From Candidatus Tayloriibacteriota bacterium (lineage in GTDB: Bacteria; Patescibacteriota; Minisyncoccia; Phycocordibacterales; PALSA-1337), in NCBI GenBank assembly GCA_052034805.1, contig JBPOID010000005.1:1-48983 (forward strand): a stretch of 48,983 nucleotides of DNA, in the 5' to 3' direction. Position 1 is the stretch's first letter; the number at the start of each line of letters is the position of its first letter. The notes below the pieces were generated by a model that worked only from the letters and a program-made list of their open reading frames with translations, made no database searches and was not told where the DNA came from. This document shows positions 2,185 to 17,207 of this stretch, piece by piece. The translations under genes were made by a program, and so were the position numbers.

Positions 2185-2445
2185 TTATGCCAATGGGTAA
2201 AAAAGAAGCAAACTAATGCCGATCTCAAACAAAATTAAAAGATATCCGGCATATGTTGGCTCCTTTTTAACAAGAGACGTAATAGAAAAACCCACACAGA
2301 GAAGTACAAATAAACCGTATATCCAGTGAGAAATTAATTCTACTGTATGCCCTTGCCACGACGGCAGAATCCATCCAAGACCGAATTGAAGGACAATCAT
2401 TAGAAGAGCTAGGTAAGCGAATTTTTTACTTTGTGTTTGTTGCAT
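2185..2445 (-). CDS. small multi-pass membrane protein (cassette 1 cargo)
   Basis: ORF track; three hydrophobic helices; ATG starts 6 nt after the stop of remnant copy 1. Confidence 0.55.
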   Translation of the reverse strand: MQQTQSKKFAYLALLMIVLQFGLGWILPSWQGHTVELISHWIYGLFVLLCVGFSITSLVKKEPTYAGYLLILFEIGISLLLFYPLA

Positions 2446-2451
2446 ATATTT

Positions 2452-2500
2452 TTAGTTATTCCCCGCCTCAATCACATGTCTCAACAAAATAATTATATTC
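2452..2500 (-). pseudogene. degenerate copy 1 of a GAPDH-type 3'-end remnant
   Basis: Minus-strand ...LLRHVIEAGNN*. The DNA aligns by eye at roughly 70 percent with copies 2 and 3 (tccccgcct, cacatg and ctcaac blocks conserved) and carries a 1-nt indel. Confidence 0.4.
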
Positions 2501-2528
2501 AAACTCCTAACGAATAGCAAGTAAAATA

Positions 2529-2936
2529 TTATTGCCCAACCAGAGGTGCCCAATAAGGTGATGCACCAAAAATCAGAATAATCAACCCAATGATAACCGT
2601 CAGTACAATTATGAGGGTAGCAACAGGTTTGCCTGAGCTTGTTTCTAAGTTTGGATCTTTTATAATTTTGTACCATACCCATGCACACAACAAAAGAATG
2701 ATGGTTGAAACAGTTAACAAAACTGCCTTATGTGTGGCAACATCAAAATCCCAACAAACTTCATTTCCTAAAAATATACAGGTAGGGAAAAACACGAATA
2801 TTCCAGTACAGACAGTAAGTATATAGTATCCAATAGATTTTATTATTCCAGGATGTCTGTGAAGAATATAGTTAAAAAGTACAACCCTTATAATAAAGAA
2901 AATAATGGTAACAATTGTGAGAAAAATAATTGACAT
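2529..2936 (-). CDS. multi-pass membrane protein (cassette 2 cargo)
   Basis: ORF track; about four hydrophobic helices; ATG lies 15 nt downstream of the remnant copy 2 stop. Confidence 0.6.
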   Translation of the reverse strand: MSIIFLTIVTIIFFIIRVVLFNYILHRHPGIIKSIGYYILTVCTGIFVFFPTCIFLGNEVCWDFDVATHKAVLLTVSTIILLLCAWVWYKIIKDPNLETSSGKPVATLIIVLTVIIGLIILIFGASPYWAPLVGQ

Positions 2937-2951
2937 GAATTTTATAAATTA

Positions 2952-3017
2952 TTAAATTAATCTCCCCGCCTTCACCACATGCTCAACCAAAGTATGCGTA
3001 TACCCCATCTCATTACT
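2952..3017 (-). pseudogene. copy 2 of a GAPDH-type 3'-end remnant
   Basis: Minus-strand translation SNEMGYTHTLVEHVVKAGRLI*, preceded by an in-frame TAA (3018-3020). It fits the C-terminal WYDNE-x-GY[ST]-x-x-[LV]V signature of type I glyceraldehyde-3-phosphate dehydrogenases. Confidence 0.65.
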
Positions 3018-3033
3018 TTACGCAGATCTGATC

Positions 3034-3552
3034 TTAATTACTTCTAACAATAACAGAGCGATATTTGAACACATTTCTAATAATAGAAATACTCAAAACC
3101 AAAATTATACTCAACCACATCAATTTACTAATCATTACAATAGGTTGACTCTGGACCAATGCTGTCCAAGCAGCAGGAACTCCATCATCTCCGATAGGAC
3201 CTGTTTCATCGAAGATGGCGATAAATGAATACCAACCGCCGAAAATGATTGAATCTATAAAAAATGTAATGAATAGCAACATATAGAAATTGAAGATAAG
3301 CTTCATGACTGATCTCCTAATCCCGATTATACTGAATGCTAACTTGTCAGCAAAGATTATAGAAAGAATGAATACTAAGCCAGTTACAGGTGCATCTAAC
3401 ATATATAACCAAGAAAACGGACCTATAGGGACGATAACACCAAGAGAACGAAAAAGTTCTCCCGTTATAAAAAATATACCGATATAAATAATACTAACCA
3501 AAATCCAAATGAACCAATAACTCAAGTACCATTTATAAGGAAATAATTTCAT
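3034..3552 (-). CDS. multi-pass membrane protein (cassette 3 cargo)
   Basis: ORF track; five to six hydrophobic helices; ATG lies 24 nt downstream of the remnant copy 3 stop. Confidence 0.65.
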   Translation of the reverse strand: MKLFPYKWYLSYWFIWILVSIIYIGIFFITGELFRSLGVIVPIGPFSWLYMLDAPVTGLVFILSIIFADKLAFSIIGIRRSVMKLIFNFYMLLFITFFIDSIIFGGWYSFIAIFDETGPIGDDGVPAAWTALVQSQPIVMISKLMWLSIILVLSISIIRNVFKYRSVIVRSN

Positions 3553-3576
3553 ACCATTTATTTTATTAATATTTTA

Positions 3577-3654
3577 TTAAATTAACTTCCCCGCCTTCAC
3601 CACATGCTCAACCAGCGTATGTGTATACCCCATTTCGTTACTGTACCACGCTAG
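3577..3654 (-). pseudogene. copy 3 of a GAPDH-type 3'-end remnant
   Basis: Minus-strand translation LAWYSNEMGYTHTLVEHVVKAGKLI*. Similarity to the GAPDH C-terminus stops at about 3655; the upstream MPKITENS is unrelated. Confidence 0.65.
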
Positions 3655-3816
3655 CGAATTTTCCGTTATTTTTGGCATTGGCTTAAGTATAACATGAAAT
3701 TTTTTTTGAAATCATCCCGCCGCCCGTCTTCTGAAGCAACAATTTTTGCGACCTCAAAAGGCGAGCGATGGATGTGCTATTCTGTTGTCAACGTCCTTGT
3801 GTATCATCATAAACAA

Positions 3817-3838
3817 ACGCTTGTTTAATAGCAAGCGT
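3817..3838 (-). terminator. intrinsic terminator after the integrase / small basic ORF
   Basis: acgcttg (3817-3823) pairs with caagcgt (3832-3838) around an 8-nt loop. On the minus strand it is followed by ttgttt and overlaps the TGA of the small ORF. Confidence 0.4.
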
Positions 3839-3981
3839 CAGAATACGCCCTGTTTTAGGGCTTTATTTCGTCTTTTCTTACCACTCAACTTCCCCATTCT
3901 GCTGAAGTGTTTCTTGCCGTATTTGCGGACTGTTGTCGATCCGCCTTTTCGGCCAAGCTGTTGTGCCGCTTTATTTTTCAC
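3838..3981 (-). CDS. possible 47-aa lysine/glycine-rich basic protein (KGG-repeat-like)
   Basis: My translation from GTG 3979-3981: VKNKAAQQLGRKGGSTTVRKYGKKHFSRMGKLSGKKRRNKALKQGVF*. It is in the same frame as the integrase, separated only by its TAA plus 8 codons. No clear SD; below the ORF-track size cut-off. Confidence 0.3.
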   Translation of the reverse strand: MKNKAAQQLGRKGGSTTVRKYGKKHFSRMGKLSGKKRRNKALKQGVF

Positions 3982-4005
3982 CCACTTATTATAACAAACG
4001 ATTGT

Positions 4006-5013
4006 TTAGCAGTGAATAGCCCTCGTTCTGGGTATTTTATATTTTTTTGCTCTCTGATTTCTCGGAACATTTTTAAATGCGTCATATCGTCTCTGCAAAT
4101 CTGGACCGGTCATCATAGTGTATATCATGGAACTCTCAAGACTCGAGTGCCCGAGAATATTTGACACATCTGAATTTGATCCGCCTTTGTTCACAATATC
4201 TCGTCCCATAAAATGTCTCATCGAGTGCGCATTCAATGTGGGTATGCCTGCACGATTGGAATTTGTGCGTAGCAACTCAGCAACACCAACAACCGTCATT
4301 CTTTTTCCTCTTGTCGCATTCTGACCACACTTTGATATGGATACAAACAATGCATCCAAATCCTCAAAAGTGAAAAGCTGATACAGATGCTTTCTTTTCT
4401 GCACCCATCTTTTCAGAAGTGCATTTGTGCTTGGAGTCCAAAATATTTCTCGTATCGGCCGACGGCCGCGGGACTTCTCTGTTTTAATAAGCGCCGTTCT
4501 CTTGTTAAAATCGAGATCGCTTACATTGAGAGCTGTTATTTCTCCGTTTCTAGCACCAGTGTCCCATATGAGAGAAATCAAAGCGCGATTTCTTAAGTGG
4601 TGAGGCTTGTTGTCTTTTGGTATAGAGTTGATGAGTTTATTGAATCCCTGCACAGTGGCAATGCGGGGAATATTGTATTCCTTTCTTGGTGTCGGTATGA
4701 GAGCCTCATTGATTACGTTGAATTTTTGCAGATTATAAAATTCAAAGAATTTTTTGAGACCGAGTGTGACAATGATGATGCCATTTCGTTTCCATCCCAG
4801 ATCCTTCATCATATTCAAATAGCTCATGATGTCATTGAGAGTAATGTTTTCGATATGAGGATTACGCAGGTACAGGCAAAAAATCCTCAATACCTTGTCG
4901 TATCTCTTTACAGTATGACCGGAGACTTTGATCTGTCTCCAACCACTAAATTGATCTATGGCATCTTTGAAAAGCATATGTGCCAACCAAAAAGCCCACT
5001 CGATGCTACTCAA
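4006..5013 (-). CDS. tyrosine recombinase / phage-type integrase (XerC/D-like)
   Basis: ORF track. Catalytic residues are visible: R in DTGARNGEI, HSMRH (H-x-x-R), and LGHSSLESSMIY (His and Tyr nucleophile). The listed start is TTG at 5011-5013; ATG at 4975-4977 (MLFKD...) is an alternative. Confidence 0.9.
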   Translation of the reverse strand: MSSIEWAFWLAHMLFKDAIDQFSGWRQIKVSGHTVKRYDKVLRIFCLYLRNPHIENITLNDIMSYLNMMKDLGWKRNGIIIVTLGLKKFFEFYNLQKFNVINEALIPTPRKEYNIPRIATVQGFNKLINSIPKDNKPHHLRNRALISLIWDTGARNGEITALNVSDLDFNKRTALIKTEKSRGRRPIREIFWTPSTNALLKRWVQKRKHLYQLFTFEDLDALFVSISKCGQNATRGKRMTVVGVAELLRTNSNRAGIPTLNAHSMRHFMGRDIVNKGGSNSDVSNILGHSSLESSMIYTMMTGPDLQRRYDAFKNVPRNQRAKKYKIPRTRAIHC

Positions 5014-5039
5014 AGTGGGACTTTTGGCGACAATCTGCT

Positions 5040-5215
5040 CATTGAGCGTCCTGCCATTCCCTAGCTAGGGAGACATAACCTTACGGCCATATCATTCATC
5101 ATCTTACTCCACCCCTTTGGGGAATAGCAAGCTAATGTGGGTCAAAAGTCCATTGGGTAGCATCTGGCCATATAGGCCTGATCCCTTTCGGGTACAATGG
5201 ATAATATTCGGTTGT
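5040..5215 (-). ncRNA. hairpin-dense structured leader / possible cis-regulatory RNA or att arm region upstream of the integrase
   Basis: On the minus-strand RNA, ccauug/caaugg (5195-5200 with 5150-5155) encloses ccc-GAAA-ggg (5183-5192) and ggcc-uauau-ggcc (5166-5178). Also present: cccc-aaa-gggg (5112-5122), auggcc-GUAA-gguuau (5075-5090, two G-U pairs that would be A-C on the plus strand), and the palindrome ccctagctaggg (5059-5070). Confidence 0.3.
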
Positions 5216-5222
5216 GCACTAC

Positions 5223-5251
5223 ATCCTAGTGTAGTGTCATTCTATTGTCAA
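5223..5251 (-). promoter_or_regulatory. sigma70-like promoter for the integrase, with the -10 inside a 7-bp inverted repeat
   Basis: Minus strand: TTGACA (5251-5246), 17-nt spacer, TAGGAT (5228-5223). The inverted repeat cactaca/tgtagtg (5217-5236) brackets the -10 like an operator. Confidence 0.35.
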
Positions 5252-5338
5252 GAAGGATTTTTTATTGGATAGTACATTAGCGAGTAAATATCCATTATGT
5301 CAATTAAAATAAGGCTATTTTGACTATTCAATTAAAAA

Positions 5339-5365
5339 GTCGCAACGATTTTTAGGCGTTGCGAC
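5339..5365 (-). terminator. intrinsic terminator after the PRTase-like gene
   Basis: 9-bp stem gtcgcaacg/cgttgcgac with a 9-nt loop, followed on the minus strand by ttttt (5334-5338). It lies 25 nt after the stop at 5390. Confidence 0.65.
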
Positions 5366-5389
5366 AGATTTTTGAGGAAAATGCACAGA

Positions 5390-6406
5390 TCAATCCAGAC
5401 TTTTTCGCATTTCCTTCAGGAACCCGATTACCTCGGTATTTAGGGCAGGTAGAGCCTCATTTGCACCCACTTTTATCGGTATAGAAACCCTTGGATGGAT
5501 TCCCAGAAGCTCCCCCATCACGATACTTCGACCACTTTCTTTGCTGATACGGTTGAACAGGTCGATTGCAACATTCAGGAAGGTGACTGATAGCTCCCTA
5601 GCATTCTCGGCAGGCATGCTTGTCCACTTTTCCATCATACCGAATGGCAGAATGTATGGGTAAGCCAAGCTGTGACCTTCTGATGTCTGGACCGGTGCGT
5701 AGCTATGGGCTACATGTTCACCAACTACACGTCCACATCCGGGAGCGAACGGGATGAGGTCGCGATCGGCAATCCACTCAAACAGATTCTCGAAGGCGTG
5801 AATGATCACGAGCTCGCCTTTGAAGGCCTGTTCAATGACTGCCTTAGCCCCGACGTCGCAGAACCCGATTATAACTGTCACGACTTTGACACCACGCCGC
5901 TCTAGCTCCTTGAGTATGTAGAGACAAGTGTTACCTCGGAATGCTCCCTCTTTGGCAAGGATCACCGGACGACCGGCAATCTTGAGTGCCAAATCATCCA
6001 GTTGTCTGTCGAGGTAATTGAATCCGGGACGCGGACCGTAACCGAACATCTTGCCTTCTGTATTGAACAGTCGGTTAATGCTTAGGTTAAGACCTTCCTG
6101 ATTTGGATTCAAATCATCCATCTCAGAGCAGGTGACGAGAACCGCATGCTGATTATTCACAGCGATACGTTTATGAACCTGCTCCCAGATTTCAAGCCTG
6201 AGCTTATTCTTATCGACGGGGTGAATCGCGTTATTCGGAAACGCGCGAGTTACCCTCTCGAGAAGACTTTGGCGCAGATGCCCGAATATCGGATCATCCG
6301 GATTAGGGACAATCAGACCTTTCGATCGGAACGACTGTAGACTGCTTGCTAAGTCAAAGGAAACCACGCAGGTTCCCTGATGAGCTACCGGACTGGCAGA
6401 TTGCAT
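5390..6406 (-). CDS. phosphoribosyltransferase-like protein with a degenerate PRPP loop; otherwise unrecognised
   Basis: ORF track; GGGAGG SD 5 nt upstream. GRPVILAKEGAFRGNTCLYILKELERRGVKVV resembles by eye the PurF-type PRPP-binding loop (G-K-R-V-V-L-V-D-D-S-I-V-R-G-T-T), but the acidic DD pair is KE. No Ntn-glutaminase N-terminus. Confidence 0.55.
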   Translation of the reverse strand: MQSASPVAHQGTCVVSFDLASSLQSFRSKGLIVPNPDDPIFGHLRQSLLERVTRAFPNNAIHPVDKNKLRLEIWEQVHKRIAVNNQHAVLVTCSEMDDLNPNQEGLNLSINRLFNTEGKMFGYGPRPGFNYLDRQLDDLALKIAGRPVILAKEGAFRGNTCLYILKELERRGVKVVTVIIGFCDVGAKAVIEQAFKGELVIIHAFENLFEWIADRDLIPFAPGCGRVVGEHVAHSYAPVQTSEGHSLAYPYILPFGMMEKWTSMPAENARELSVTFLNVAIDLFNRISKESGRSIVMGELLGIHPRVSIPIKVGANEALPALNTEVIGFLKEMRKSLD

Positions 6407-6495
6407 AGGAACCTCCCTTTCTTGTGGTTGTTGAGTTGACTACGTTGAAAGAACACATCTCATCCAGTCTATATTGGAATCTGAAAAAGCGCTAA

Positions 6496-6813
6496 TTATT
6501 TTTCCTCACCCTTGAGCCGTTCTATCATCATCTTGTAGCCTCCACATCCTTCTTTCAACCATCGGTTGATCTTGGTTATTGTCACTGGAGATTCCCCCGT
6601 TTCTTCCTGAATTTGCGTGAATGGCATGCCGGCATATAATTTCTTAGCGACTTCCCATCGCATGGCGAATTCACGAAGATCCCGTTCACTCATGAGATCA
6701 CGAAAAAATGCCCTGAGTTCATCTTCATTCTTAAGCGACAAAAAAGCCTTGATCAAATCAGGAGATTTTTTCTCAAGCTCTGCCCATATTCCATTTTTTT
6801 CTTCTTCAGTCAT
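6496..6813 (-). CDS. YerC/YecD-family Trp-repressor-like DNA-binding protein
   Basis: ORF track. LRAFFRDLMSERDLREFAMRWEVAKKLYAGMPFTQIQEETGESPVTITKINRWLKEGCGGY matches the YerC/YecD TrpR-like HTH pattern. Confidence 0.75.
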   Translation of the reverse strand: MTEEEKNGIWAELEKKSPDLIKAFLSLKNEDELRAFFRDLMSERDLREFAMRWEVAKKLYAGMPFTQIQEETGESPVTITKINRWLKEGCGGYKMMIERLKGEEK

Positions 6814-6911
6814 AAATATATATTACCACTTAGAACTATTCCTATAAAGTAGTCCTACCTTTTAGTCGAAGGACATTACTTACTTTTTAATTAGTATGGT
6901 AATTATACCAC

Positions 6912-7214
6912 ATGCCCATATATAACATCGACCCATTTAAAGATGCGAGAAAAAATGCACATATTTGGCGAGGTGAAAATACCATAATCTGGTATAACGA
7001 GAAACTTGATGGGTCTTTCACGGTGCTTACACTTTATGATTTTGGTGATAAAAAACGACGAATCTATCTTGAAGTGAATGATGAAAATCAAAAAGTTGAA
7101 TTTAGAAATGATGAGTTAGCTGAAGAACAATATGTGAAGCTTTTACAGGAGATATATTTAATCGAAAAATTCCTTGCGGAACCACAGCAGTTATCAGGGT
7201 CACTTCCATTTTGA
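6912..7214 (+). CDS. hypothetical protein (only plus-strand gene in the island, within an AT-rich patch)
   Basis: ORF track; no SD and no recognisable family. It converges on a bidirectional terminator. Confidence 0.45.
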   Translation: MPIYNIDPFKDARKNAHIWRGENTIIWYNEKLDGSFTVLTLYDFGDKKRRIYLEVNDENQKVEFRNDELAEEQYVKLLQEIYLIEKFLAEPQQLSGSLPF

Positions 7215-7225
7215 CGTATAAGAAA

Positions 7226-7253
7226 ACGCCCTCGATTTTTAGGTCGAGAGCGT
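7226..7253. terminator. bidirectional terminator hairpin between convergent genes
   Basis: acgccctcga/tcgagagcgt, a 10-bp stem with one mismatch and a ttttt-containing loop. It sits between 7214 (+ stop) and 7255 (- stop). Confidence 0.5.
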
Positions 7254-7254
7254 C

Positions 7255-8925
7255 CTATATAAACTTACCCGTCAACATTGCGGACCATTGCTGATGTGGA
7301 TGCAGGGCGACAGGTTTGATGTCTCCCAATCGCTGACCCAATGCAGTGCAGGTAGTTAGATAGACTTGGAATGTATCTTGATTAGGGTCGATCAAATACA
7401 TCTTGCAATGCCCGAGCTGTTCTAACCGACGGCAATAGTCATAGTGGAAGTTTTCCCGAAAGGCAGATTCAATTTCTTGATTCAAATCCCTCAGTACACC
7501 ATCCTCAACGACAGCGCCGTTTACAAACTGAATGAACAATGTATATTCAACGACCTGTACAGATGATCGTTCGGGCGCCACCATCCAGAAACTGGGTTGA
7601 TGACTGATCCTCGAGATCACCTGTCTTATGACGTTGCTGACAAACTGCTCATTGAGCTTCTCTCCGCAGATATCGACAACTTTGTCTTGCTTGCCGACAA
7701 ATCGTATGAGCGGACACTCTGCTTCAAATCCCAAGACCTCGACTACATCGTTGAGCCGGTATCGATAGAGACCGCCACTTGTGGTGACAATCACCGAATA
7801 CTTTTTTCCAACTCCAAGTTCGTGCGCCAACCTGATCGTTTTACTCTCAACTTCTTCAAACTCGAAAAAATGGGAGTTAATCGACAAGGCTGATGCTTCG
7901 CCTCGAAGCGGAAATGACACGAATGCCTCAGTCGCAATCAAACCTTTCGGCTGGATTGTAACATTCGGAAAGTAAGTCCGAAGTTGCTTTACAGCTTCTT
8001 CTGAATTACCATGTGTCCAACAACTGATCAATTTCAGATTTGGCCAGATCGCCTCGTAAAGACATCCGTCTTTTCTGTCTCGGATTCTTTCAAGTTCCTT
8101 AGCGCGTCCCACCGACTTTTTCAGACTATTGCGGATCAACACATCAACTTCAGGTATAACCCCGAGATCAATCGACATCGAGCCAGTCCGTATATCCTCA
8201 ATGAGTTGGTTGAACCATGTCTCAAGAGGACTAAGGAATAAGGTCGCAAAAGTGGGATTCCAGATGGATACCCACGAGAGTGACTTTTCCTGTAACAGGA
8301 AACGAAGCGTGGCATACCTGAACGCATCCATGTCTTGGATGAGAGCAAGCTCCGACGGGGTTGCCATCACAGTTCCGAGAACCCATTGCGTGAGTTTCCC
8401 GAAGTATGATCGCTCGTCGTCAAAGCCTATTGGAATGCCGCCAGATGAGTACCGCTGTCTCTCACCGATCGGAGTGACCGACCAGTAGGCTTTTCCAGCT
8501 AGTATCCGCAAATGGTCTCTCATGAGATGGTACATCCACGGATCGATTCCTTCTTGGAATTCGCTGACGAGTGATGCTGTGTAAGGCACCAGCTTTGATG
8601 CGCTTGTCGAGCCACTCGATACGCCGAATCTCTGAACTGAATCTGCGGTCAGCACATTTTGTGCGCCAGCCGCTATCTCATCAATGTAGGGTTGAACGTC
8701 TTCGTAAGACTGCACTGGTACAGCCCTTTGAAATGCCGCGACAGAATCAATCTTTCCGAAGGAATGCGTTTGACCGAAGTCGGTCTCTGCATTCCGTGAA
8801 AGAAGTCGCTTCAGGATTTTAGCCTGAGTTGCTTCAACATTTTTGCTCGCTCGCCTCCAGATCCTTGTCCTCACAGCTGAGTACAAGAACCATAGGAGGT
8901 TCGCTGTGAGGACTTTTATTTTCAT
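7255..8925 (-). CDS. GH3-family acyl-acid amido synthetase (adenylate-forming)
   Basis: ORF track; AAGGAAA SD. FGVSSGSTSASKLVPYT (AMP-binding S/T-rich loop) and SGGLYRYRLNDVVEVLGF (GH3 signature GLYRYRLGD) are present. Confidence 0.85.
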   Translation of the reverse strand: MKIKVLTANLLWFLYSAVRTRIWRRASKNVEATQAKILKRLLSRNAETDFGQTHSFGKIDSVAAFQRAVPVQSYEDVQPYIDEIAAGAQNVLTADSVQRFGVSSGSTSASKLVPYTASLVSEFQEGIDPWMYHLMRDHLRILAGKAYWSVTPIGERQRYSSGGIPIGFDDERSYFGKLTQWVLGTVMATPSELALIQDMDAFRYATLRFLLQEKSLSWVSIWNPTFATLFLSPLETWFNQLIEDIRTGSMSIDLGVIPEVDVLIRNSLKKSVGRAKELERIRDRKDGCLYEAIWPNLKLISCWTHGNSEEAVKQLRTYFPNVTIQPKGLIATEAFVSFPLRGEASALSINSHFFEFEEVESKTIRLAHELGVGKKYSVIVTTSGGLYRYRLNDVVEVLGFEAECPLIRFVGKQDKVVDICGEKLNEQFVSNVIRQVISRISHQPSFWMVAPERSSVQVVEYTLFIQFVNGAVVEDGVLRDLNQEIESAFRENFHYDYCRRLEQLGHCKMYLIDPNQDTFQVYLTTCTALGQRLGDIKPVALHPHQQWSAMLTGKFI

Positions 8926-8935
8926 TTGGTTTCCT

Positions 8936-9661
8936 TTATTGTTTTACCGATCTGAGCAGTCGTGTCATTGCCGGGGCGAAGTTACCTTGGTTCACCGGCG
9001 CAACACAGACGAGCTCTGTTCCCGAAAGATATGTTCGATTCACTTCGAGAAAGAATCGTATATGTTCGTCAGGTTCTGATGGTGGCACCGCGTCGATGCT
9101 GCCTGGGATAAGGCGCTGTGTCTCCTTTGAGAACATGATGAGTCCCCGATTGGGGTCATAATCTCTAGGATATTTAACCTGCCCGAATGCATCCATGACC
9201 TCCTTGTCGGTTTTTGAGACGTCCGCATCATACTTCGGTGCGAAATGCCTGAAAAAGAATGGCAGAATCTTGTAGGTCCGCCACCCCTTCGAGATCAGAA
9301 TATAATATATTTCCTGACCTAGAGAGGTATGCAGAGCCTTCATGAAGTAGCGCCCGATTTCAATACCGAAGCCAGTGCTACTCCTATATTCCGGAAGGAT
9401 TGTAGTATCCCCCGAAAACACAGCTTTCACTTTTCTTCCTTCGATAGGAAGATTGAGCATCATGAGCGTCGAAAAGCCCACTATCTCTCCATCATGAGTC
9501 TCCTTGCGGAGTAGCATGACAGCTTCTTTTTCTTCAAGGTCTCGGATGAAATCTTGACGACTCACACCGAGAAACTCGAGGGAAAGGAGACCGAACATGG
9601 TAGCCCTCTCAGAGGGCGTAAGCTCGGCAATCTGCTTGGTCTGACTGAATATCTTTGACAT
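8936..9661 (-). CDS. GNAT-like acyltransferase (family uncertain)
   Basis: The ORF track gives 8936..9748. I prefer ATG 9659-9661 (MSKIFSQ...) because of a perfect AAGGAGA SD 5 nt upstream. VFSGDTTILPEYRSSTGFGIEIGRYF resembles the GNAT motif A region. Confidence 0.6.
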   Translation of the reverse strand: MSKIFSQTKQIAELTPSERATMFGLLSLEFLGVSRQDFIRDLEEKEAVMLLRKETHDGEIVGFSTLMMLNLPIEGRKVKAVFSGDTTILPEYRSSTGFGIEIGRYFMKALHTSLGQEIYYILISKGWRTYKILPFFFRHFAPKYDADVSKTDKEVMDAFGQVKYPRDYDPNRGLIMFSKETQRLIPGSIDAVPPSEPDEHIRFFLEVNRTYLSGTELVCVAPVNQGNFAPAMTRLLRSVKQ

Positions 9662-9753
9662 AGGTTTCTCCTTGGTTGAGGTTTTCAAATAACAAATCTC
9701 TAGGGCTATTCCTACCACAAAAATGTGCTTTAGTAAATGTCCAAGCATAAAAA

Positions 9754-9789
9754 AGAGCCTTGCTGTATTTGTGGTACGAACAAGGCTCT
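9754..9789 (-). terminator. terminator/attenuator-like hairpin inside the biosynthetic cluster
   Basis: 9-bp stem agagccttg/caaggctct with an 18-nt loop, starting 1 nt after the stop at 9791. On the minus strand it is followed by a T-run (complement of the A-run at about 9749-9753). Confidence 0.45.
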
Positions 9790-9790
9790 G

Positions 9791-10897
9791 CTACAACGTT
9801 GCAACCTCGAGATGAGCAATCCTTCCGTTTTTGGGAAGCATAGCCTTTTCTCCTGGCCAATGAACGAGGTATATTCTACTTTTAAGCTCTCGCAACGCCA
9901 GACGGCGAGCGACAGTTGAAAGCTTGTTTTCCTCGGCTAGACCGACAAGGAGATAATCATGACCGCGACCCGACCAATCCCGGCACGCTTGGCTTATAAG
10001 CGATTCAAAGACTTCAGTATTGTCGTCTTCGGCACTCACAAACGAGGCGTGTACTGACCGAATCATTTCCCCGATGCTCGGTAGCATCGGAAAACCTCTC
10101 AATCGGGCAATCCCGTTATAGAAAGGCTTGACTGCTTTCATTTGTGCAGAGTAACCAGTGACGATTGTCTGCTTGAATGATTGTTGATCCCAGACACCGA
10201 GAGTTCCTACGACCTTGCCTCTCTTTTTGTAGACATACAAGTCCTTTTTAGAGAAATTCGGAAGTAGTCTAGTTCCACCAGATAAGTCATCCAGCGTGTA
10301 GGCAGGAGCAAACTGGTGACGACCATTCCATTCACTCAGACACTTATGCGCTTGTGGCAAAGTATCTTCGTTGCAGGATAGAACCTCGTGTCGTAACTTA
10401 CGTAACACCCTCTTTCGGATGGGTATCAAATAGGTTACGAACATTCCCACGGGAACATATGTTGGCATCCCTGCTCGTCCGCTTTCGAGGATTTGCTGGG
10501 CGTACCTGTTCTCGTCGAGAATCGTCGTGAAGTAGTAAGGCACTTTTCCATCGCCGTGAAGGCTTTGGAGAAACTTGTACCCTCTGACCAATGTCATACT
10601 ACTTCGAACTTCGGGAAGGAGTCTAAGACTGCTCAGGTAGCCAACGGTTTTTTCCTCACCGTCGACATATAACTTTCGAACACTTCGACCACCGATGCCG
10701 GTGATCGTGCCGTCATTCTGATCTTGATAGACCAGTGTTTGAGACCCCACGCTTCCAGCTTGTTCGGCTATGAAGAATGAGGGTTCGCGGCTGAACGCCA
10801 ACGATACATTACCAGGCATATGGGCTTTGCGGAGAACGGCACGCAATGCGCCGTCCTCCGCTTCGCCCGCTAGCTTGAAACCGAATCTGTTGTTCAT
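9791..10897 (-). CDS. hypothetical 368-aa protein, possibly a two-lobed acyltransferase (FemX/tandem-GNAT-like) fold
   Basis: ORF track; ATGA overlap with the upstream rSAM gene (10894-10897). The function is guessed from size and context only; no motif recognised. Confidence 0.7.
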   Translation of the reverse strand: MNNRFGFKLAGEAEDGALRAVLRKAHMPGNVSLAFSREPSFFIAEQAGSVGSQTLVYQDQNDGTITGIGGRSVRKLYVDGEEKTVGYLSSLRLLPEVRSSMTLVRGYKFLQSLHGDGKVPYYFTTILDENRYAQQILESGRAGMPTYVPVGMFVTYLIPIRKRVLRKLRHEVLSCNEDTLPQAHKCLSEWNGRHQFAPAYTLDDLSGGTRLLPNFSKKDLYVYKKRGKVVGTLGVWDQQSFKQTIVTGYSAQMKAVKPFYNGIARLRGFPMLPSIGEMIRSVHASFVSAEDDNTEVFESLISQACRDWSGRGHDYLLVGLAEENKLSTVARRLALRELKSRIYLVHWPGEKAMLPKNGRIAHLEVATL

Positions 10898-12306
10898 GCA
10901 AGCACACTTTCCCTTTGAACAACTGACACGGGTTGTGGCCGTTGAATGCCTTCTTCAGGCATCCAAATCGGCTGAGGCCGTTCAGGCAGATCGCCGAGTG
11001 GTAGTCTGTCCTTCTGTCCAATTTCCTTCCGGAGAAGGTAGTTGAGCCAAAAGTATCCGCCAGCCTTCGACAACGTAGAGCAGTTACCGACGATGTTTCC
11101 AGCTCTTTTTAGGATACCAGGGTAGCTGTAGAACTTCTTTCTGGCTGCAATGCAGCCTTCATGGAGTTCGTCGGCTGTCATGTTACGCGGTGTAAATGGC
11201 GCATCTCCAAAACGAAAACTTGGAGAGAGCCACCACGCTTCATCAGTCAGCCTGCTTTCGTTCTGGAACTGCTGGTACAGCGGAGTCCCAGGGAACGGGA
11301 TGAGCGGATTGAACGCCCCAATAAAGATCCCGAACTCGAGTGCCGCTTCCACAGTTCTTTGGATATCGTCAGCCGATTCTGAATCGTAGCCGAAGATAAA
11401 CGTGCCGTAGATGGCAATGCCATAGCTGTGCATTTTTTTGATCAACTCCTTGTAGTTTCCCAGTTTGGTGTTGAACTCCTTATTCATGAGCTTCAGTGTA
11501 TCCGCACGAAGGGATTCGAAGCCCACTAGCACTCCCAGACAGCCGCTCAAAGCCATTGCTTCAAGCAGTTCGTCATCTTTGGCCATGGTAAGCGATCCCT
11601 GACCCATCCACTTGACCTTAAGTGGAGCAATTTCCCTGCACAGCTGCTTTGCATGCTTGGGATTCCCAACAAAATTGTCTTCTACGAAGAAGGCAGTCTT
11701 GTGGCGTATTGATCCAACGTCCGCGACAACGCTGTCGATGGGACGTGGGTGGTAGTGCGAGGATGTCGCTGCAGCGATCGAACAAAAGCTGCAACAGAAT
11801 GGACAACCTCGTCCAGTCTCGACATTGCTCATAGGCAGATACTGCCGCGCTCCGAAGATCTCTCTCCGGGGCATGACATACTGGTATGGCTCCGTTTTAT
11901 TCTGGACGTAGCGGCGTTTGAGAGCACCTCGTTCTGCGTCACGGATTACTGTTTCCCAGAGAACTTCCGCGTAGCCGATAAGAATGCTGTCGGCATAGCG
12001 TTGCGTTTCATCAGGAAGCAGCATCACATGATAACCGCCGAGAATAGTTCTCACTCCTCTCTTGCGGTATTCAGCACAGATTTCATAGGCACGCTTGGCT
12101 GTATAGGTTTCGATGGTTACAGCGACAAGATCAGTAGGCTGATCGAAGTCGATTGTTTCCATCCGCTCGTCAAAGTAGGCGAGCTCCACATCGGCGGGCG
12201 TAAGGCCAGCCAACGTTGCGATGGTTAACGGCTCCATCTGCCATGTCCTCACGTATTCGGTCCGCGACTTGCGACCAACGTGAGGGGTAATCAATGTCAC
12301 TTTCAT
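10894..12306 (-). CDS. cobalamin-binding (class B) radical SAM enzyme, COG1032-like, copy 2
   Basis: The ORF track gives a start at 12390. I prefer ATG 12304-12306 (MKVTLITP...), which has an AAGGAG SD and an ATGA overlap with the upstream gene. The motif is GRGCPFCCSFC (CxxxCxxC), with an N-terminal B12-binding-like Rossmann segment and a DUF4070-like C-terminus. Confidence 0.85.
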   Translation of the reverse strand: MKVTLITPHVGRKSRTEYVRTWQMEPLTIATLAGLTPADVELAYFDERMETIDFDQPTDLVAVTIETYTAKRAYEICAEYRKRGVRTILGGYHVMLLPDETQRYADSILIGYAEVLWETVIRDAERGALKRRYVQNKTEPYQYVMPRREIFGARQYLPMSNVETGRGCPFCCSFCSIAAATSSHYHPRPIDSVVADVGSIRHKTAFFVEDNFVGNPKHAKQLCREIAPLKVKWMGQGSLTMAKDDELLEAMALSGCLGVLVGFESLRADTLKLMNKEFNTKLGNYKELIKKMHSYGIAIYGTFIFGYDSESADDIQRTVEAALEFGIFIGAFNPLIPFPGTPLYQQFQNESRLTDEAWWLSPSFRFGDAPFTPRNMTADELHEGCIAARKKFYSYPGILKRAGNIVGNCSTLSKAGGYFWLNYLLRKEIGQKDRLPLGDLPERPQPIWMPEEGIQRPQPVSVVQRESVLA

Positions 12307-13700
12307 ACTGTTACTCCTTCCAATGTTAAGGTTGTCGGTTGATGCGCTACGGAATAATCCGGAGCATTGAACCACGATGTCCCCTCGCAAGGGATAGGCA
12401 TAAATTTGGGATACTTCCTGGCGTACAGGTTATATCCGAGATTCGTACCGATCGATGTAGCGAGGATAAGCGGGTTTAGAGACGCGGCAGATGTCATTAT
12501 CCGCCGTGCGATTGAGGTCATCTTGTACGCCTCGCACCAGACCCTCTTTGTGCCTTCGTAAAGGCGCTCGGGAGTCATGCCTTTCGGTTGAAAGACAACG
12601 TGCTGGCCGTCATACCACTCCCAGTCCTTGCTGATGATGCGGTTTTCCTGATCAAGCTGGCGATACAGTGGTGTCCTCGGGAACGGAGTTGCGATCGCAA
12701 AGCGCGGCAAATCAATGCTGGCCTTGAAAACGAACTCAAGCGTCTCATCAAACACTCCCTCAGTATCTCCATCGATACCGAACACGAAACAGCCGTTAAT
12801 GGCGATCCCATGATCGTGGAGCATTTTAATGCGCCACAGGTTGTCGGCTGGTTTCTGCCAGTATTTTCCCATAGCCTTCAAAGACTTAGGGTTCTGCGAT
12901 TCCAGACCAATCAAGAGACCCCGACAGCCGCTTTTGGCAGCACGCTTCACTAACTGCGGGTTATCCGTGATGTTAAGAGTTGCCAGACCGCCCCAGTATT
13001 TACCGAGCGGAGCAAGCGCGTCACAGAGCTGGCCGAAGTATTCCTGATCAGAGGTAGGCGAGAGATCAATGAGAATGAACGTCTTCCCTGGAAATTCTGC
13101 AACTTCCCGAGCGACATCCAGCGGATCGCGTTGATACTGTTTGGGCCATGCCGTCGGCACGACGCAAAATGTACAGCGATAGACGCAACCACGAGTCGCC
13201 TGCGCAACATTCATGGTCGTGTATTTATCCTTTCTCAACAATTCCCGTCTCGGACGAGGATACCCGTCCATCGTGATTGGCTGCCTGTCATAGCGCTTCC
13301 TGAGCTTTCCTGCAACAAAGTCACGCAGGAGTTCAGGCCACACTTCTTCGGCATAACCATAGACAATGGCGTCTGCATGACGTTCAGCTTCTTCGGGACA
13401 CAGGGTGATATGAACTCCGCCAAGAACGACAGTGATGCCTCGATTCCGAAGAATTCGGCTATACCGGTATGCCTTGGGGGCGTTTCCAGTGATCACTGTG
13501 ATCCCGACGATGTCTGCATCAATAGTTTGAGGATCAAAATCCTCATTGCCTTCATCAACACATCGGACTGACGCATTGAGTTCCGGCGGGATGAGAGCGG
13601 CGAGAGTTGTCAGCGTAAGCGGTGCATACCGCAGACGCTGATCAAACGCGCCATCCTTTGCATAACGAGTCGACTGCGGCATAAGTAATACGATATTCAT
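12303..13700 (-). CDS. cobalamin-binding (class B) radical SAM enzyme, COG1032-like, copy 1
   Basis: ORF track; AAAGGAGA SD; RGCVYRCTFC (CxxxCxxC). Clearly paralogous to copy 2 (VVLGGVHITLCPEEAERHADAIVYGYAEEVW versus TILGGYHVMLLPDETQRYADSILIGYAEVLW). Confidence 0.85.
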   Translation of the reverse strand: MNIVLLMPQSTRYAKDGAFDQRLRYAPLTLTTLAALIPPELNASVRCVDEGNEDFDPQTIDADIVGITVITGNAPKAYRYSRILRNRGITVVLGGVHITLCPEEAERHADAIVYGYAEEVWPELLRDFVAGKLRKRYDRQPITMDGYPRPRRELLRKDKYTTMNVAQATRGCVYRCTFCVVPTAWPKQYQRDPLDVAREVAEFPGKTFILIDLSPTSDQEYFGQLCDALAPLGKYWGGLATLNITDNPQLVKRAAKSGCRGLLIGLESQNPKSLKAMGKYWQKPADNLWRIKMLHDHGIAINGCFVFGIDGDTEGVFDETLEFVFKASIDLPRFAIATPFPRTPLYRQLDQENRIISKDWEWYDGQHVVFQPKGMTPERLYEGTKRVWCEAYKMTSIARRIMTSAASLNPLILATSIGTNLGYNLYARKYPKFMPIPCEGTSWFNAPDYSVAHQPTTLTLEGVTV

Positions 13701-13914
13701 GACAAATCTCCTTTTGTTTGTTGTGTGAGTTGTAAAGGAACAAGAAAATGTACAGGTTCCATCTATAACATACCACAGAATGATTTATTTATGTAGTCAA
13801 AGTCAAAAATAATCCCAAGATGCTTTATCCACTTTCTTGCATAGCCCTTTAGAACAATTCATTGTATAATTAATCAATATTTAATGGCGAATTTTAATAA
13901 AATAAATTAATAAT

Positions 13915-14343
13915 ATGCAATCAAAAACATCGTTAGGGATATTCAAGGCGTTGGCTTGGTTTGTATCGATTTATCATTTCATACTTGGAATACTAGCAAT
14001 ATTTGCTCCGGCAAGTATGGTCGTGCCAATAGTAAATACTATCTATGGTGTTAATCCGAACATAGATGCTCAATTTCTGTATATGGTCAAGTTTATCGGT
14101 GCCTACATGATCATGTTCGCCGTTGTAACTGCAATTCTTGCATATAAACCAATCGAGTATAAAAAATTAGTATGGATACCAATTGGTCTATTTGTTATTC
14201 GTATTATTGAGAGACTTTTATTTTTTGGTCTTCTAAGTGAAGCATTCAATATAACTTTTGCACAAGATCTTCGAGTGATGATACCTATTACAGTTCTTGC
14301 AATAGCTCTATATTATTTCAGACCACGAACTTCAATAGTGTAG
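13915..14343 (+). CDS. four-helix small membrane protein (paralog of 15643..16056)
   Basis: ORF track. Shares H-[FL]-x-x-G-x-L-x-x-F-x-P near the N-terminus and P-x-x-Y-K/x-x-W with the other copy. Confidence 0.65.
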   Translation: MQSKTSLGIFKALAWFVSIYHFILGILAIFAPASMVVPIVNTIYGVNPNIDAQFLYMVKFIGAYMIMFAVVTAILAYKPIEYKKLVWIPIGLFVIRIIERLLFFGLLSEAFNITFAQDLRVMIPITVLAIALYYFRPRTSIV

Positions 14344-14367
14344 GTAATGAAGATGTTCCTAAGTAAA

Positions 14368-14387
14368 AGAGACGCTATGGCGTCTCT
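14368..14387. terminator. bidirectional terminator between convergent genes
   Basis: agagacgc-tatg-gcgtctct, flanked by aaaa on the 5' side and tttt on the 3' side. It lies between 14343 (+) and 14392 (-). Confidence 0.6.
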
Positions 14388-14391
14388 TTTA

Positions 14392-15633
14392 CTATACAAT
14401 TCTAGGATTACCATATTTACGCACCGATCGAAGAAGTAGTGGTACGAGTGAAGATATAATGATCAACAAACCTGACCAAAGAAAAACATGTCCAAGATAC
14501 TTTTCCATCACATGTCCTGCTATTAGTTCTGATACAGGATTCAATCCAATTGATGAGAAAATGAGTATGCCCATCGTTCGGCCCATCATTTCAGGAGGAG
14601 TATTCTTTTGCACTATTGTAATGAACGAAATCATTACATACCCAGCCGCAACTGCGCTTAAGAAACTTACAAGCATAAACTGTGGTGTCGTCTGCGCATA
14701 AGCGAACAATGAAAAGAAAACTCCAATCAAACTGGCTATCACCAACAGATAGATTGAAGGATTTCTTTTGGGAGTTAAAAATCCTGCCAAGGCATACCCA
14801 ACGAGAGCACCAATTCCCCATGCAGAAACAATAAATCCAAAGGAATATGCGCCTGCCAATTGATTTTTCGCTATGAGTGGCATTCCCACAAGAAAGGGAC
14901 CAATGACGCAGAAATTTACTAATGTTGCCGCAACTAAAATATATCTGAGTCCTTTATGCTTCCAAACAGAAATCAAACCCTCCTTAAGCATTCCCGCAAA
15001 TTTTTCCGTACTCTCAATAAATGAGGTGCTTTTTATCAAGCGCAATGTCATCAATGAAACAATAAATGTCAGAGCATCGACGAGCATAGCAATACCGATT
15101 CCATTATATGCATGTGTCCTATATTCAATAAAACCAATAAGCGATCCGACAATAAACGGGCCAATAAATTGAGATAGTTGTGTCAGTCCTTGGATGAGAG
15201 TGTTTCCGATTCCAAGCACCTCCTTTGAAACAATGTGTGGGACAAGACTAGATCGAGCTGGTATAAAAAAGGCGTCAAAAATGCCAAATAGTAAGGCGAT
15301 TGTGTAAATCATCCATAGTTCAATTTTGCCAGTAAGAATAAGAAATGCTAATAAAAGTACCACACAAAAACGCGTAGCATTTGAGACGAGCATGACCGCT
15401 CGAGGAGAAAAACGATCAATAACTGTCCCACTCACGAACATGAGAATTGCTCTTGGAAAACCAGAAAGAGCAAGTACTGTTCCTACTGCAATACTACTCC
15501 CAGTCATTCTGGCGACTAACCATGCGAGACCAACAAATGTAAATTGGTCACCAATATTTGAAATTGTCTCACCCCAAAAAAGTAGTTTGAAATTTCTATT
15601 CCTGAATAATGTTTTGAGTCGTCCTTTATCCAT
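14392..15633 (-). CDS. MFS transporter (DHA3/EntS-like efflux type)
   Basis: ORF track; about 12 hydrophobic helices. The N-terminus FRNRNFKLLFWGETISNIGDQFTFVGLAWLV is typical of this MFS subgroup. Confidence 0.8.
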   Translation of the reverse strand: MDKGRLKTLFRNRNFKLLFWGETISNIGDQFTFVGLAWLVARMTGSSIAVGTVLALSGFPRAILMFVSGTVIDRFSPRAVMLVSNATRFCVVLLLAFLILTGKIELWMIYTIALLFGIFDAFFIPARSSLVPHIVSKEVLGIGNTLIQGLTQLSQFIGPFIVGSLIGFIEYRTHAYNGIGIAMLVDALTFIVSLMTLRLIKSTSFIESTEKFAGMLKEGLISVWKHKGLRYILVAATLVNFCVIGPFLVGMPLIAKNQLAGAYSFGFIVSAWGIGALVGYALAGFLTPKRNPSIYLLVIASLIGVFFSLFAYAQTTPQFMLVSFLSAVAAGYVMISFITIVQKNTPPEMMGRTMGILIFSSIGLNPVSELIAGHVMEKYLGHVFLWSGLLIIISSLVPLLLRSVRKYGNPRIV

Positions 15634-15642
15634 AATAGTTGG

Positions 15643-16056
15643 TCATCTATAATAGACAATCTGTGCAATAATTATTGAGACGCATAGTAATATAAGACCA
15701 ACATGCGAAAGATTTCTTTTTCGAGCAAGTTTTAAAGATAATGTTGCTTCTTTCTGAAATTTCAAGCGATATACAAGTCTCATCAAAAGTAGAATAACCA
15801 AGGCACCGAGTATCCAAATATATTTTTTGGGATCAAGGACTGGAAGCAGTCCTACAAGTCCTGCAAAGATACCGAGAGCACCCCACGGTTTAAGTATGAT
15901 GAGATATTCCTTTGTTTCTGGAATTTCTGCACCGAATAACTTCGAGTATGTCTTTACGGCTCTCCCAGGGAAAAACATTCCCAAGGCTCCTGTAAAAAGA
16001 TGGTCTGCTGCAAGCAGAACCAAATTCAGAGCAAAAAGAAACTTAATTATAATCAT
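15643..16056 (-). CDS. four-helix small membrane protein (paralog of 13915..14343)
   Basis: The ORF track lists 15643..16074 from a TTG. ATG at 16054-16056 (MIIIKFLF...) is more likely. Confidence 0.6.
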   Translation of the reverse strand: MIIIKFLFALNLVLLAADHLFTGALGMFFPGRAVKTYSKLFGAEIPETKEYLIILKPWGALGIFAGLVGLLPVLDPKKYIWILGALVILLLMRLVYRLKFQKEATLSLKLARKRNLSHVGLILLCVSIIIAQIVYYR

Positions 16057-16101
16057 TACTAAATAATACAACAAAATAGAAATTTTTGGTATACTTGGAC
16101 T

Positions 16102-16944: not shown

Positions 16945-16955
16945 AAAAGATTTCT

Positions 16956-17207
16956 ATGAATATAACATTGTATGCAACAATTGCAGGAATACTGACCTCA
17001 ATAAGATTAATTCCGCAAGTTATAAAAAGTTTGAAGACAAAAAGCACTCATGACCTATCACTATATTTTGTTGTGATATGTCTATTCCAAGCAATCTTTC
17101 TTATTCTTTATGGAGCTAGCAAACCAGATAATGCTATTCTATATATGAATATATTACCTCTGATATGTTCAGCCATTCTTCTGTATCTGAAGTACAAATA
17201 TAGGTAA
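16956..17207 (+). CDS. SemiSWEET / PQ-loop sugar transporter
   Basis: ORF track; 83 aa with three helices and the PQ motif in IRLIPQVIKSLKTKST. Confidence 0.75.
   Translation: MNITLYATIAGILTSIRLIPQVIKSLKTKSTHDLSLYFVVICLFQAIFLILYGASKPDNAILYMNILPLICSAILLYLKYKYR

Follow-up and report, generated by a model that had tools for sequence, protein, structure and literature searches.

The contig analyzed here (the window: all 48,983 nt of JBPOID010000005.1, assembly GCA_052034805.1, from a Candidatus Tayloriibacteriota bacterium) carries on its minus strand three displaced copies of the 3′ end of gap, the gene for glyceraldehyde-3-phosphate dehydrogenase (GAPDH); each copy heads a small membrane-protein gene, and the first abuts a tailed prophage. 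Our preferred reading, to which we assign a probability of about 0.72, is that mini-cassettes, similar to cis-mobilizable elements (CIMEs) and analogous to those of integrons, were accreted at the end of gap by phage-type recombinases, and that a prophage occupies the same site. On this reading, the host is a low-GC bacterium of the Paceibacteria (Patescibacteria, or candidate phyla radiation, CPR) in which the last 16 to 26 gap codons act as an attachment site for a family of Xer-like tyrosine recombinases borne by temperate phages.

The original prediction, made from the letters of the window, took the three peptides for GAPDH 3′ ends, and three lines of evidence bear this out: i) among the matches listed by a phmmer search of PDB, all were GAPDHs matched at or near the C-terminus, barring five designer repeat proteins; ii) the 120 nearest GAPDHs (Patescibacteria, some labeled Taylorbacteria or Patescibacteria group by their sources), retrieved with the partial gene beside the cassettes in the relative L001, which includes the NASCTTN active site, share the ending ...LAWYDNEMGYT[HYN]TLV.HV..AG.L[IV]; and iii) a GAPDH-tail hidden Markov model (HMM) of 27 positions matches all three copies, with 63.5, 51.3, and 10.0 bits for copies 1, 2, and 3. 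A Pfam scan, as proposed with Gp_dh_C (PF02800), gave no match, the peptides being too short for Pfam, and the PDB search and the custom HMM were used in its place. Judged by these matches, the peptides are genuine GAPDH C-termini of the Paceibacteria type. Copies 1 and 2 form a direct repeat of 81 nt with 86% identity and a spacing of 625 nt; a 25-mer of the repeat is present twice in the window (none expected from 100 shuffles), and the predicted count of six nucleotide differences over 21 codons, five of them synonymous and one K/R, is exact. Copy 3, which is shorter and lies 503 nt beyond copy 2, aligns to copy 2 with a score of 40 (best of 2000 shuffles, 31), and the alignment extends left through a decayed core and arm. 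The proposal that each copy was once a real gene end finds support as well: gap of L001 functions with copy 1 as its end, related species (P0028, P0034) have GAPDHs whose actual C-terminus is the copy 2 peptide, and the RHVIEAG motif of copy 3 is another natural variant of the tail. A candidate fourth remnant behind the 86-aa gene (GTACAGT..GAAAT) was no better than shuffles (p ~0.7) and was discarded.

No intact gap lies inside the window. One had been predicted on the minus strand at higher coordinates, and it is found there in a second assembly: L004 (Logan SRR34217542, 53.6 kb) is 100% identical to window positions 37076-48983 (11,908 nt) and continues with two small phage genes, a hairpin terminator, and a 329-aa gap, preceded by msrA-msrB, whose stop lies 415 nt past the window end. 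Exact-protein look-ups yielded this contig as well as L001, L002, and L003. In this lysogen gap is an intact open reading frame (ORF) with the phage-supplied end ...THTLVNHVIAAGRLV and stop, after which the terminator follows. The site reads GAG-ATGGGGTA-TACAC at attB (L001), GAG-ATGGGGTA-CACAC at attL (L004), and GAA-ATGGGGTA-TACAC at attR (window); left of the core attL is host and attR is phage (GAG vs GAA), and right of it attL is phage and attR is host (C vs T at +1). These diagnostic mismatches on both sides bracket the exchange, as read from the aligned junctions, to the 8-bp core. The prophage evidently recombined into gap at ATGGGGTA with the reading frame kept: it brings a new 16-codon gap end, and the former working end, as in L001, was displaced to attR, where it is copy 1. 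The attR arm (LAWYSNE) and the attL tail (THTLVNHVIAAGRLV and stop) together therefore reconstruct an attP that is a 26-codon mimic of gap.

A free attP is seen in L086, a syntenic IMG/VR phage, in which int is followed by the mini-ORF MKRSKQLTWYSNELGYTYTLVNHVIAAGRLV, ending LTWYSNELGYTYTLVNHVIAAGRLV and stop, by a terminator, and by the same early genes; this attP is a full 26-codon gap-tail mimic, in a phage that is a relative only (Int 54% identical, early-gene DNA ~80% identical). Two further viral contigs (L085, L094) carry a gap-tail mimic ~530 nt 3′ of a related int, and attR-type junctions of related prophages are found in L217/L223, L229, and L220. A scan of viral contigs with a DNA motif of the tail produced one match only, unrelated and of high GC. 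As a separate observation, a mini-ORF starting at an ATG (such as MPKITENS-LAWYSNEMGY...) closes with the mimic in 6/6 attP or attR regions examined (window 3577-3678 on the minus strand; L217 ~6323-6437; L229 ~10299-10406; L220 ~379-453; L086 ~9613-9708; L085 9372-9539), where an in-frame ATG ahead of any stop would be expected in roughly a quarter of random cases. The mini-ORF may keep translation or translational coupling going into the displaced downstream genes.

Comparison of relatives, which had been proposed as a check, reveals that both the prophage and the cassettes are polymorphic. L001 (ENA ERZ27258480), an empty site for the phage, reads gap, 24 nt, 172-aa gene, copy 2, 135-aa gene, copy 3, 86-aa gene, and equals the window from 3625 downward except for one base (3620); L222, like L001, has the cassettes and no prophage. 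In a closely related strain (L002 and L003), the 86-aa gene begins 7 nt behind gap, and both the 172-aa and 135-aa cassettes and the prophage are absent. By this comparison, two units evidently stood at the site before the phage arrived.

These two integrase-less units, of 625 and ~505 bp, keep both att sites: copies 1 and 2 flank the 172-aa gene, copies 2 and 3 flank the 135-aa gene, and the prophage abuts copy 1. Read in order, each unit comprises a mimic of the gap tail, a spacer of 6-24 nt, a single small membrane-protein ORF, and a left arm of 18-24 nt that resembles gap and ends at the core. The predicted spacings of 6-24 nt from each copy to the next ATG are confirmed (Table 1), as is the multi-pass character of the 86-, 135-, and 172-aa products, each with 3-5 hydrophobic spans by hydropathy. 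The 172-aa protein has homologs with 55% and 41% identity in two other contigs (L220, L221); the 135-aa family is small, with 6 representatives at E<=1e-3 among 1.84 billion proteins. Copy 2 has in its left arm (GCGT..AAAGTAATGAG) the AGT (Ser) and GCG codons of the phage arm, where the intact host gap has GAC or GAT (Asp) and mostly GCT; its tail differs from that of copy 1 at 4 nt. Remnant R5 in the array of another species (L223) matches copy 2 over 74 nt with 93% identity. Copy 2 has the appearance expected of an attR once all but the site is gone. Copy 3 had been described as a degenerate third copy of the tail, and decayed it is; it is not a tail only, since it is full length with left arm and core (~2513-2496), the arm (..CGTTAGGAG) being AT-shifted, and to all appearances it is the same kind of object as copy 2 after decay. 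Alignment of the three copies, suggested as a way to find the crossover core, gave the intact 8-bp ATGGGGTA at copies 1 and 2 and a decayed version at copy 3. Near copy 3 we also noted a 15-mer, CTATTCGTYAGGAGT (window 2492-2520, minus strand), just 3′ of the 135-aa gene, whose only other occurrence among 228 loci is in L200, from another species (7391-7405), just 3′ of an unrelated 127-aa post-gap gene. The window copy of the 15-mer shares bases with the decayed left arm of copy 3 and with a promoter-like TTGCTA-17-TATAAT; it may be a variant cassette end or arm common to both loci, or the promoter of the next gene.

Over 15 phage and cassette junctions, likeness to gap is 80% at positions -1 to -18, 61% at -19 to -27, and at background beyond; cassettes and phage attP therefore end at the same site edge. 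The mini-ORF leader of the phage is present in every prophage attR and in none of the cassette remnants, and the surrogate tails of the cassettes are richer in GC than the native-looking tail of L002. There are no hairpins between units and stop-to-ATG spacing is tight; the phage, by contrast, puts a terminator straight after its surrogate tail. Because no obvious terminator or spacing separates them from the gap stop, the cassettes are probably read through from gap, and thus probably co-transcribed with it.

Similar arrangements recur elsewhere in the Paceibacteria. Extra tails 3′ of an intact gap were found in 4 of ~48 Patescibacteria species genomes that have a related gap (L006, L010, L018, L021; Table 1) and in none of the outgroups. 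Two contigs that share one array (L217 and L223) have five tails or units between int and rpiB, behind a prophage whose Int is 87% identical to that of the window; the tails head, in order, a 200-aa protein, a member of a 74-aa family, a pair of 426 and 105 aa, a DUF6922-AbiEii pair, and a 134-aa membrane protein, and the array is followed by Fic and the conserved rpiB-rpe-tkt. In the Paceibacteria, such arrays, with five units at most, sit between gap and rpiB-rpe-tkt. Across genomes, units measure 0.3-1.8 kb, and the stop of the intact gap lies 2-8 nt from the first cassette ATG in the relatives. Cassette families are also shared: i) the 74-aa family occurs in L010 and L217, with the ORF ending inside the left arm in both; ii) the 172-aa family has members in L220, where a gap-tail remnant behind the end of another prophage-like element heads the gene, and in L221, behind a homolog of the L200 post-gap gene; iii) the 127-aa family occurs in L200 and L221; and iv) DUF6922-AbiEii and Fic occur in L208 and L217/L223. 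In L217 the DUF6922-AbiEii toxin-antitoxin pair is bounded by gap-tail remnants, an arrangement that is reminiscent, by analogy, of the toxin-antitoxin cassettes that stabilize chromosomal integron arrays. In several species, the DUF6922-AbiEii pair and a Fic gene are again located between gap and rpiB (L217 9333-10225; L208 8758-10219; L223 15799-16242; L229 10425-10973). Two species (P0003, P0016) have small genes right behind gap with no detectable remnants.

Table 1. Features at and around the gap 3′ end in the window and in related contigs
Feature	Position in window	Strand	Description
Copy 1 peptide	3654-3577	minus	LAWYSNEMGYTHTLVEHVVKAGKLI, stop
Copy 2 peptide	3017-2952	minus	SNEMGYTHTLVEHVVKAGRLI, stop; preceding codon TAA, vs TAC in copy 1
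Copy 3 peptide	stop ends at 2452	minus	...LLRHVIEAGNN, stop
attR, read as mini-ORF	3577..3678	minus	MPKITENSLAWYSNEMGYTHTLVEHVVKAGKLI, stop; from attB/attL/attR comparison
attR phage arm	3678-3634		final 21 nt gap-like (LAWYSNE)
Crossover core	3633-3626	minus	ATGGGGTA, 8 bp, codons Met-Gly-Tyr
Displaced host gap tail (copy 1)	3625-3577		TACACATACGCTGG
Phage-supplied gap tail at attL			in L004; CACACATACCCTAG
Copy 2, attR-type junction	2952..3023	minus	left arm, core, tail
Copy 2 left arm	3023-3009 (~15 nt)		phage-type; ends ...GATCTGCGTAAAGTAATGAG
Copy 2 core	3008-3001		ATGGGGTA, intact
Copy 2 tail	3000-2952		THTLVEHVVKAGRLI, stop
Copy 3, decayed full-length remnant	2452..2513	minus	left arm, decayed core, 3-nt deletion, tail
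Copy 3 core	2503-2496		TTTGAATA, 4/8 positions kept
Cassette 1, 172-aa multi-pass membrane protein	3034..3552	minus	ATG 24 nt past copy 1 stop
Cassette 2, 135-aa multi-pass membrane protein	2529..2936	minus	ATG 15 nt past copy 2 stop
86-aa membrane protein gene	2185..2445	minus	ATG 6 nt past copy 3 stop
Tailed prophage, right-hand 45.35 kb	3634..48983	minus	from Pfam hits, L004 identity, and GC
Prophage gene order		minus	replication genes, methylases, portal, protease, capsid, tail, baseplate, cargo, integrase last
Tyrosine integrase, 335 aa	4006..5013	minus	likely true start near 4977
47-aa basic ORF between int and att	3838..3981	minus	81% identity to L217-type phage; conserved in related phages
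Terminator-like hairpin	3839-3816	minus	3′ of 47-aa ORF
Promoter-like TTGCTA-17-TATGAT	3834-3806	minus	overlaps hairpin; points out of prophage toward attR and cassettes
L006 unit			66-aa membrane ORF; stop codon part of arm TAGCGTGGTACGATAACGAT
L010 unit			74-aa ORF; ends inside arm
L021 unit			92-aa membrane ORF
L018 unit			141-aa ORF with own terminator; displaced tail clearly the species' own

Taken together, earlier insertions at the gap site, each with a surrogate end, are strongly indicated. The units would have entered by the same type of crossover at the core, each giving gap a new end and displacing its predecessor, and would be integrase-less mini-cassettes mobilized in trans, probably by phage-type integrases, rather than leftovers of whole prophages; in status they would resemble CIMEs, in size and layout the cassettes of integrons. 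One possible route is that a phage or circle with two cores integrates via one and excises via its neighbor, so that a unit of tail, ORF, and arm is deposited or picked up; such a route would require no new enzymology, and it is the accretion and cis-mobilization logic described for tandems of CIMEs with integrative and conjugative elements (ICEs) (PMC5704250). More tentatively, and with more doubt than confidence, we consider that the gap tail is a dedicated cassette platform analogous to an integron, and that units of 0.3-2 kb, each with a tail mimic, an ORF, and an 18-nt left arm, circulate between genomes, being inserted or excised by Xer-like phage integrases at ATGGGGTA, taken up and released by phages through alternate cores, and expressed from the gap promoter. 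If so, episymbionts with tiny genomes would gain rapidly exchangeable surface or membrane proteins and toxin-antitoxin modules.

Several observations weigh against the accretion of mobile mini-cassettes: i) none of 80 gap loci from JGI metagenomes (~55 Patescibacteria-like, 54-73% identical) has an extra remnant; ii) neither a circular cassette nor a cassette-bearing phage attP was seen, and the 3 examples of a free attP are without cassette; iii) the intermediate array (gap, 135-aa gene, 86-aa gene) was not found, a look-up with the 135-aa protein giving identical arrangements only; iv) the crossover point at copy 3 is putative, its core having decayed to 4/8 positions; v) co-transcription with gap is deduced from spacing alone; vi) L218/L226 (JGI 3300045716 Ga0486105_000091) have the Int of L217 and agree with it in the arm as far as MKNLP, where the mini-ORF begins, but within the last ~110 nt, 21 nt left of the core, they pass into an ORF unrelated to gap, SVCFSGTFGADRTDAQLIAHSGY..., and the contig then ends, an unexplained divergence that could be due to another att partner, to a variant module of the phage, or to a break in the assembly; and vii) copy 3 shares only ~73% identity with the tail that the cassette-free strain has, against >=99.5% identity in both flanks. 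Serial insertion alone predicts the native tail at the 86-aa gene, so that homologous replacement of the whole block must be added to it. The window and L002 differ at 5/265 nt (1.9%) in the 86-aa gene (window 2180-2445) and at 3/2180 nt (0.14%) beyond, a tenfold step that indicates a breakpoint of homologous recombination where the cassette block ends; the block as a whole was therefore probably swapped in from another lineage. The original prediction of serial integrations with surrogate ends is largely right, and none of the three outcomes named as refuting it was observed. We wish to stress, however, that a clean series of three steps does not describe the history, since the cassette-free strain has a different tail from the rightmost remnant, and that the agent that moved the cassettes is inferred.

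The units could instead be classical CIMEs, remnants of successive full prophages or islands at gap, each cut by internal deletion to one att-flanked gene. Integration, decay to an att-flanked, integrase-less element, and new accretion is the documented three-step origin of CIME tandems at gene 3′ ends (PMC5704250); it would suit the accretion of a cognate prophage beside the units and the phage-type left arm of copy 2. We nevertheless consider this origin unlikely. In 11 cassette units from 6 genomes there is no relic of an integrase or phage gene between remnants; the remnants keep only the 18-24-nt gap-like arm and lack the mini-ORF leader, unlike the outcome of random deletion; ORF stops abut or fall inside the arm, in the 74-aa family alike in two genomes; and no membrane-protein gene stands beside attL in this phage, the neighbors there being a terminator and then the gene of a soluble 136-aa protein. 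A quite improbable alternative is that copies 2 and 3 have no site-specific origin, the region behind gap being a hotspot of recombination in which tails were duplicated by slippage or unequal homologous exchange and whole blocks were swapped between strains with gap and the downstream genes as anchors. Homologous replacement did contribute: the block by which L001 and L002 differ runs exactly from core to tail stop, between near-identical flanks and with a non-native tail, and the adjacent 86-aa gene is tenfold more diverged. Exchange of this kind, however, leaves the origin of the units unexplained, and it does not account for left arms with the phage-type GCG, TAC, and AGT that are absent from the host's own gap, for the intact core of copy 2, which the phage demonstrably uses, or for the same unit structure, and even the same cassette genes, in other species and in other order.

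A chromosomal integron, with an IntI-type integrase and attC-bounded cassettes, has next to no probability in our estimation, although compact cassettes, most with a single ORF and apparently without promoters, form an array (with a toxin-antitoxin pair in L217) behind a strong housekeeping promoter, much as in sedentary integron arrays. The integrase scores 41.8 bits on TIGR02249 against a cut-off of 265 bits and fits Xer models best over its full length; single-stranded folding of five remnants gives z = -0.81 to +0.80, with no hairpins; the repeats are coding mimics of gap; and arrays occur without an adjacent integrase (L001, L006, L021) or, where one is present, it is the last gene of a prophage. 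Without its two defining features, IntI and attC hairpins, this reading was rejected. An attachment site of the tRNA or tmRNA type was likewise ruled out, no tRNA, tmRNA, or Rfam family being found anywhere in the window. We conclude that the accretion of mini-cassettes by phage-type recombinases, with homologous replacement of the block added, is the preferred account.

The element that had been called an integrase-bearing island does carry an integrase, but it is a tailed prophage of 45.8 kb (45,821 bp from core to core) whose attL, in gap, lies ~470 nt past the end of the window. Essentially every large ORF from 5.4 kb onward in the window is on the minus strand and of tailed-phage type, with functions assigned by Pfam to RepO, an AAA_24 ATPase, methylases, portal, protease, capsid, connector, tail tube, and baseplate; an exact-protein look-up of RepO gave no match. 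Its GC content is 44%, that of window 1-3576 is 31%, and host flanks in related contigs are at 31-33%; the low-GC cassettes are therefore host-like in composition, and foreign origin of the low-GC segment on compositional grounds was ruled out, the outlier being the prophage. For a temperate phage, 44% GC in a host of 31-33% is an unusually large upward offset. The cargo of the prophage is also unusual (window 7255-13700 and 17268-25116, minus strand): it includes a GH3-family adenylating enzyme, a TrpR-like protein, an MFS transporter, two B12-binding radical-SAM proteins with two unknown neighbors, and two sets of restriction-modification type, one with a ResIII helicase/endonuclease and an N6/N4 methylase, the other with a C5 methylase and a GHKL-ATPase protein; additional methylases lie in the early region (43214-45648).

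The integrase matches the Pfam models Phage_integrase (1.5e-23) and SAM_1, with SAM_1 at residues 29-92 and the catalytic domain at 126-300, and aligns over its full length to XerA, XerC, and XerD models (XerC and XerD from profile position 10-11 to the end). It thus has two domains, SAM-like core-binding and catalytic, with no space for an N-terminal arm-binding domain, and its scores lie far under the Xer equivalog cut-offs, so that it is Xer-like and not XerC/D itself. Its 408 homologs are mainly from Patescibacteria; as a single query it found no relatives among viral contigs, and an alignment-based search then found them. The terminator-like hairpin and the outward promoter-like element between int and attR (3806-3839) are kept in the L217-type phage, and L220 has a comparable small basic ORF and hairpin ahead of attR. 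The outward element could substitute for the gap read-through that is ended by the phage terminator at attL; a general promoter scan was at chance (26 found vs 25 expected) and uninformative.

Ahead of int, in the 376-nt gap between a 338-aa gene and int, we noted a candidate structured RNA of ~240 nt (window 5014-5260, minus strand), with its own promoter-like TTGACA-17-TAGGAT (5251-5223) and a terminator hairpin directly ahead of int. It is 82% and 73% identical in phages with Int 87% and 54% identical, respectively, and so in the more distant phage (L086) the candidate RNA is better conserved than the integrase. RNAalifold on 4 sequences gave 57 pairs, 15 of them with compensatory double changes, and GNRA-type loops; the candidate had no Rfam match even at E<=5.

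CPR bacteria have minimal genomes, few of them have been cultured, and little is known of their phages and mobile elements. The locus offers precisely mapped attB, attL, and attR, together with the attP of a relative, and a host assignment for a family of ~45-kb phages; it documents a protein-gene end that has been replaced repeatedly without loss of function, and it supplies evidence for minimal cassettes, bounded by att sites, in which toxin-antitoxin pairs and lone small membrane-protein genes travel and accumulate behind a gene of high expression. If the cassettes are indeed mobile, they would represent a second, independently evolved answer to the problem solved by integrons, the capture of promoterless genes at a fixed expressed site, with ordinary double-stranded att recombination and coding-sequence mimicry doing the work. 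At least two gap-tail matches per locus would be a simple bioinformatic marker for such arrays. Literature searches found no report of gap as an att site, of this phage group, or of such cassette arrays.

Several known systems share parts of this design. Temperate phages and defective prophages such as phage 21 and e14 integrate into the 3′ end of a protein gene, icd of E. coli, and carry a surrogate end; as there, the integrase lies beside att, the crossover falls in the last codons, the new end is largely synonymous or conservative, and the old end is found at the far junction, but here the target is gap, the host belongs to the CPR, the recombinase is Xer-like, and attP is an ATG-initiated mini-ORF of 26 codons spanning the core. 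In staphylococci, the staphylococcal cassette chromosome (SCC) elements inserted at the rlmH (orfX) 3′ end form composite arrays with recombinase-less members and target-end repeats, using serine recombinases and large elements; recombinase-less members split by target-end repeats are found here as well, with a tyrosine-type enzyme and small units. The pdif modules and integrative mobile elements exploiting Xer (IMEX) are small and use Xer-type sites, relying on the XerCD of the host and on dif-like sites that lie at the terminus or on plasmids; the units described here are likewise small modules at Xer-type sites, but their site is a gene-tail mimic. Like integrons, the gap arrays are ordered, compact, and promoterless, stand at one site behind a promoter with the newest member first, include toxin-antitoxin cassettes, and draw on families common to several genomes; unlike integrons, they have no IntI, attC hairpins, or attI/Pc module, their site is a double-stranded mimic of a coding 3′ end, and every insertion must restore the frame of their platform, a housekeeping gene.

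ICESt1, ICESt3, and CIMEs at the fda 3′ end of Streptococcus thermophilus (Pavlovic 2004 and Bellanger 2011, cited in PMC5704250) provide a case of tandem accretion and cis-mobilization. The gap locus resembles it in that units without an integrase, but with both att sites kept, form a tandem with an element that has one where a glycolytic gene ends, each unit being delimited by a gene-end repeat; it differs in that the partner element is a phage and not conjugative, and in that CIMEs are kilobase-scale decayed ICEs, whereas the units here are of 0.3-1.8 kb, usually with one ORF, trimmed to the att edges, and recur across species in varying order. As in tRNA and tmRNA islands, the target is regenerated, a displaced fragment marks the ends, and tandems occur, but the target here is a protein gene and members lack an integrase, whereas in Islander a tandem member must have its own integrase and tandems of at least 3 number 4 among 3919 islands (PMC4383910). 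Integration of a phage or island into a gene end with a surrogate end is thus textbook knowledge, and the same holds for tandems behind a glycolytic gene in which some members lack an integrase; what is new is the gap target and host group, the full-length coding mimic as attP and, above all, minimal single-ORF units trimmed to the att edges, in several species and in arrays of up to 5.

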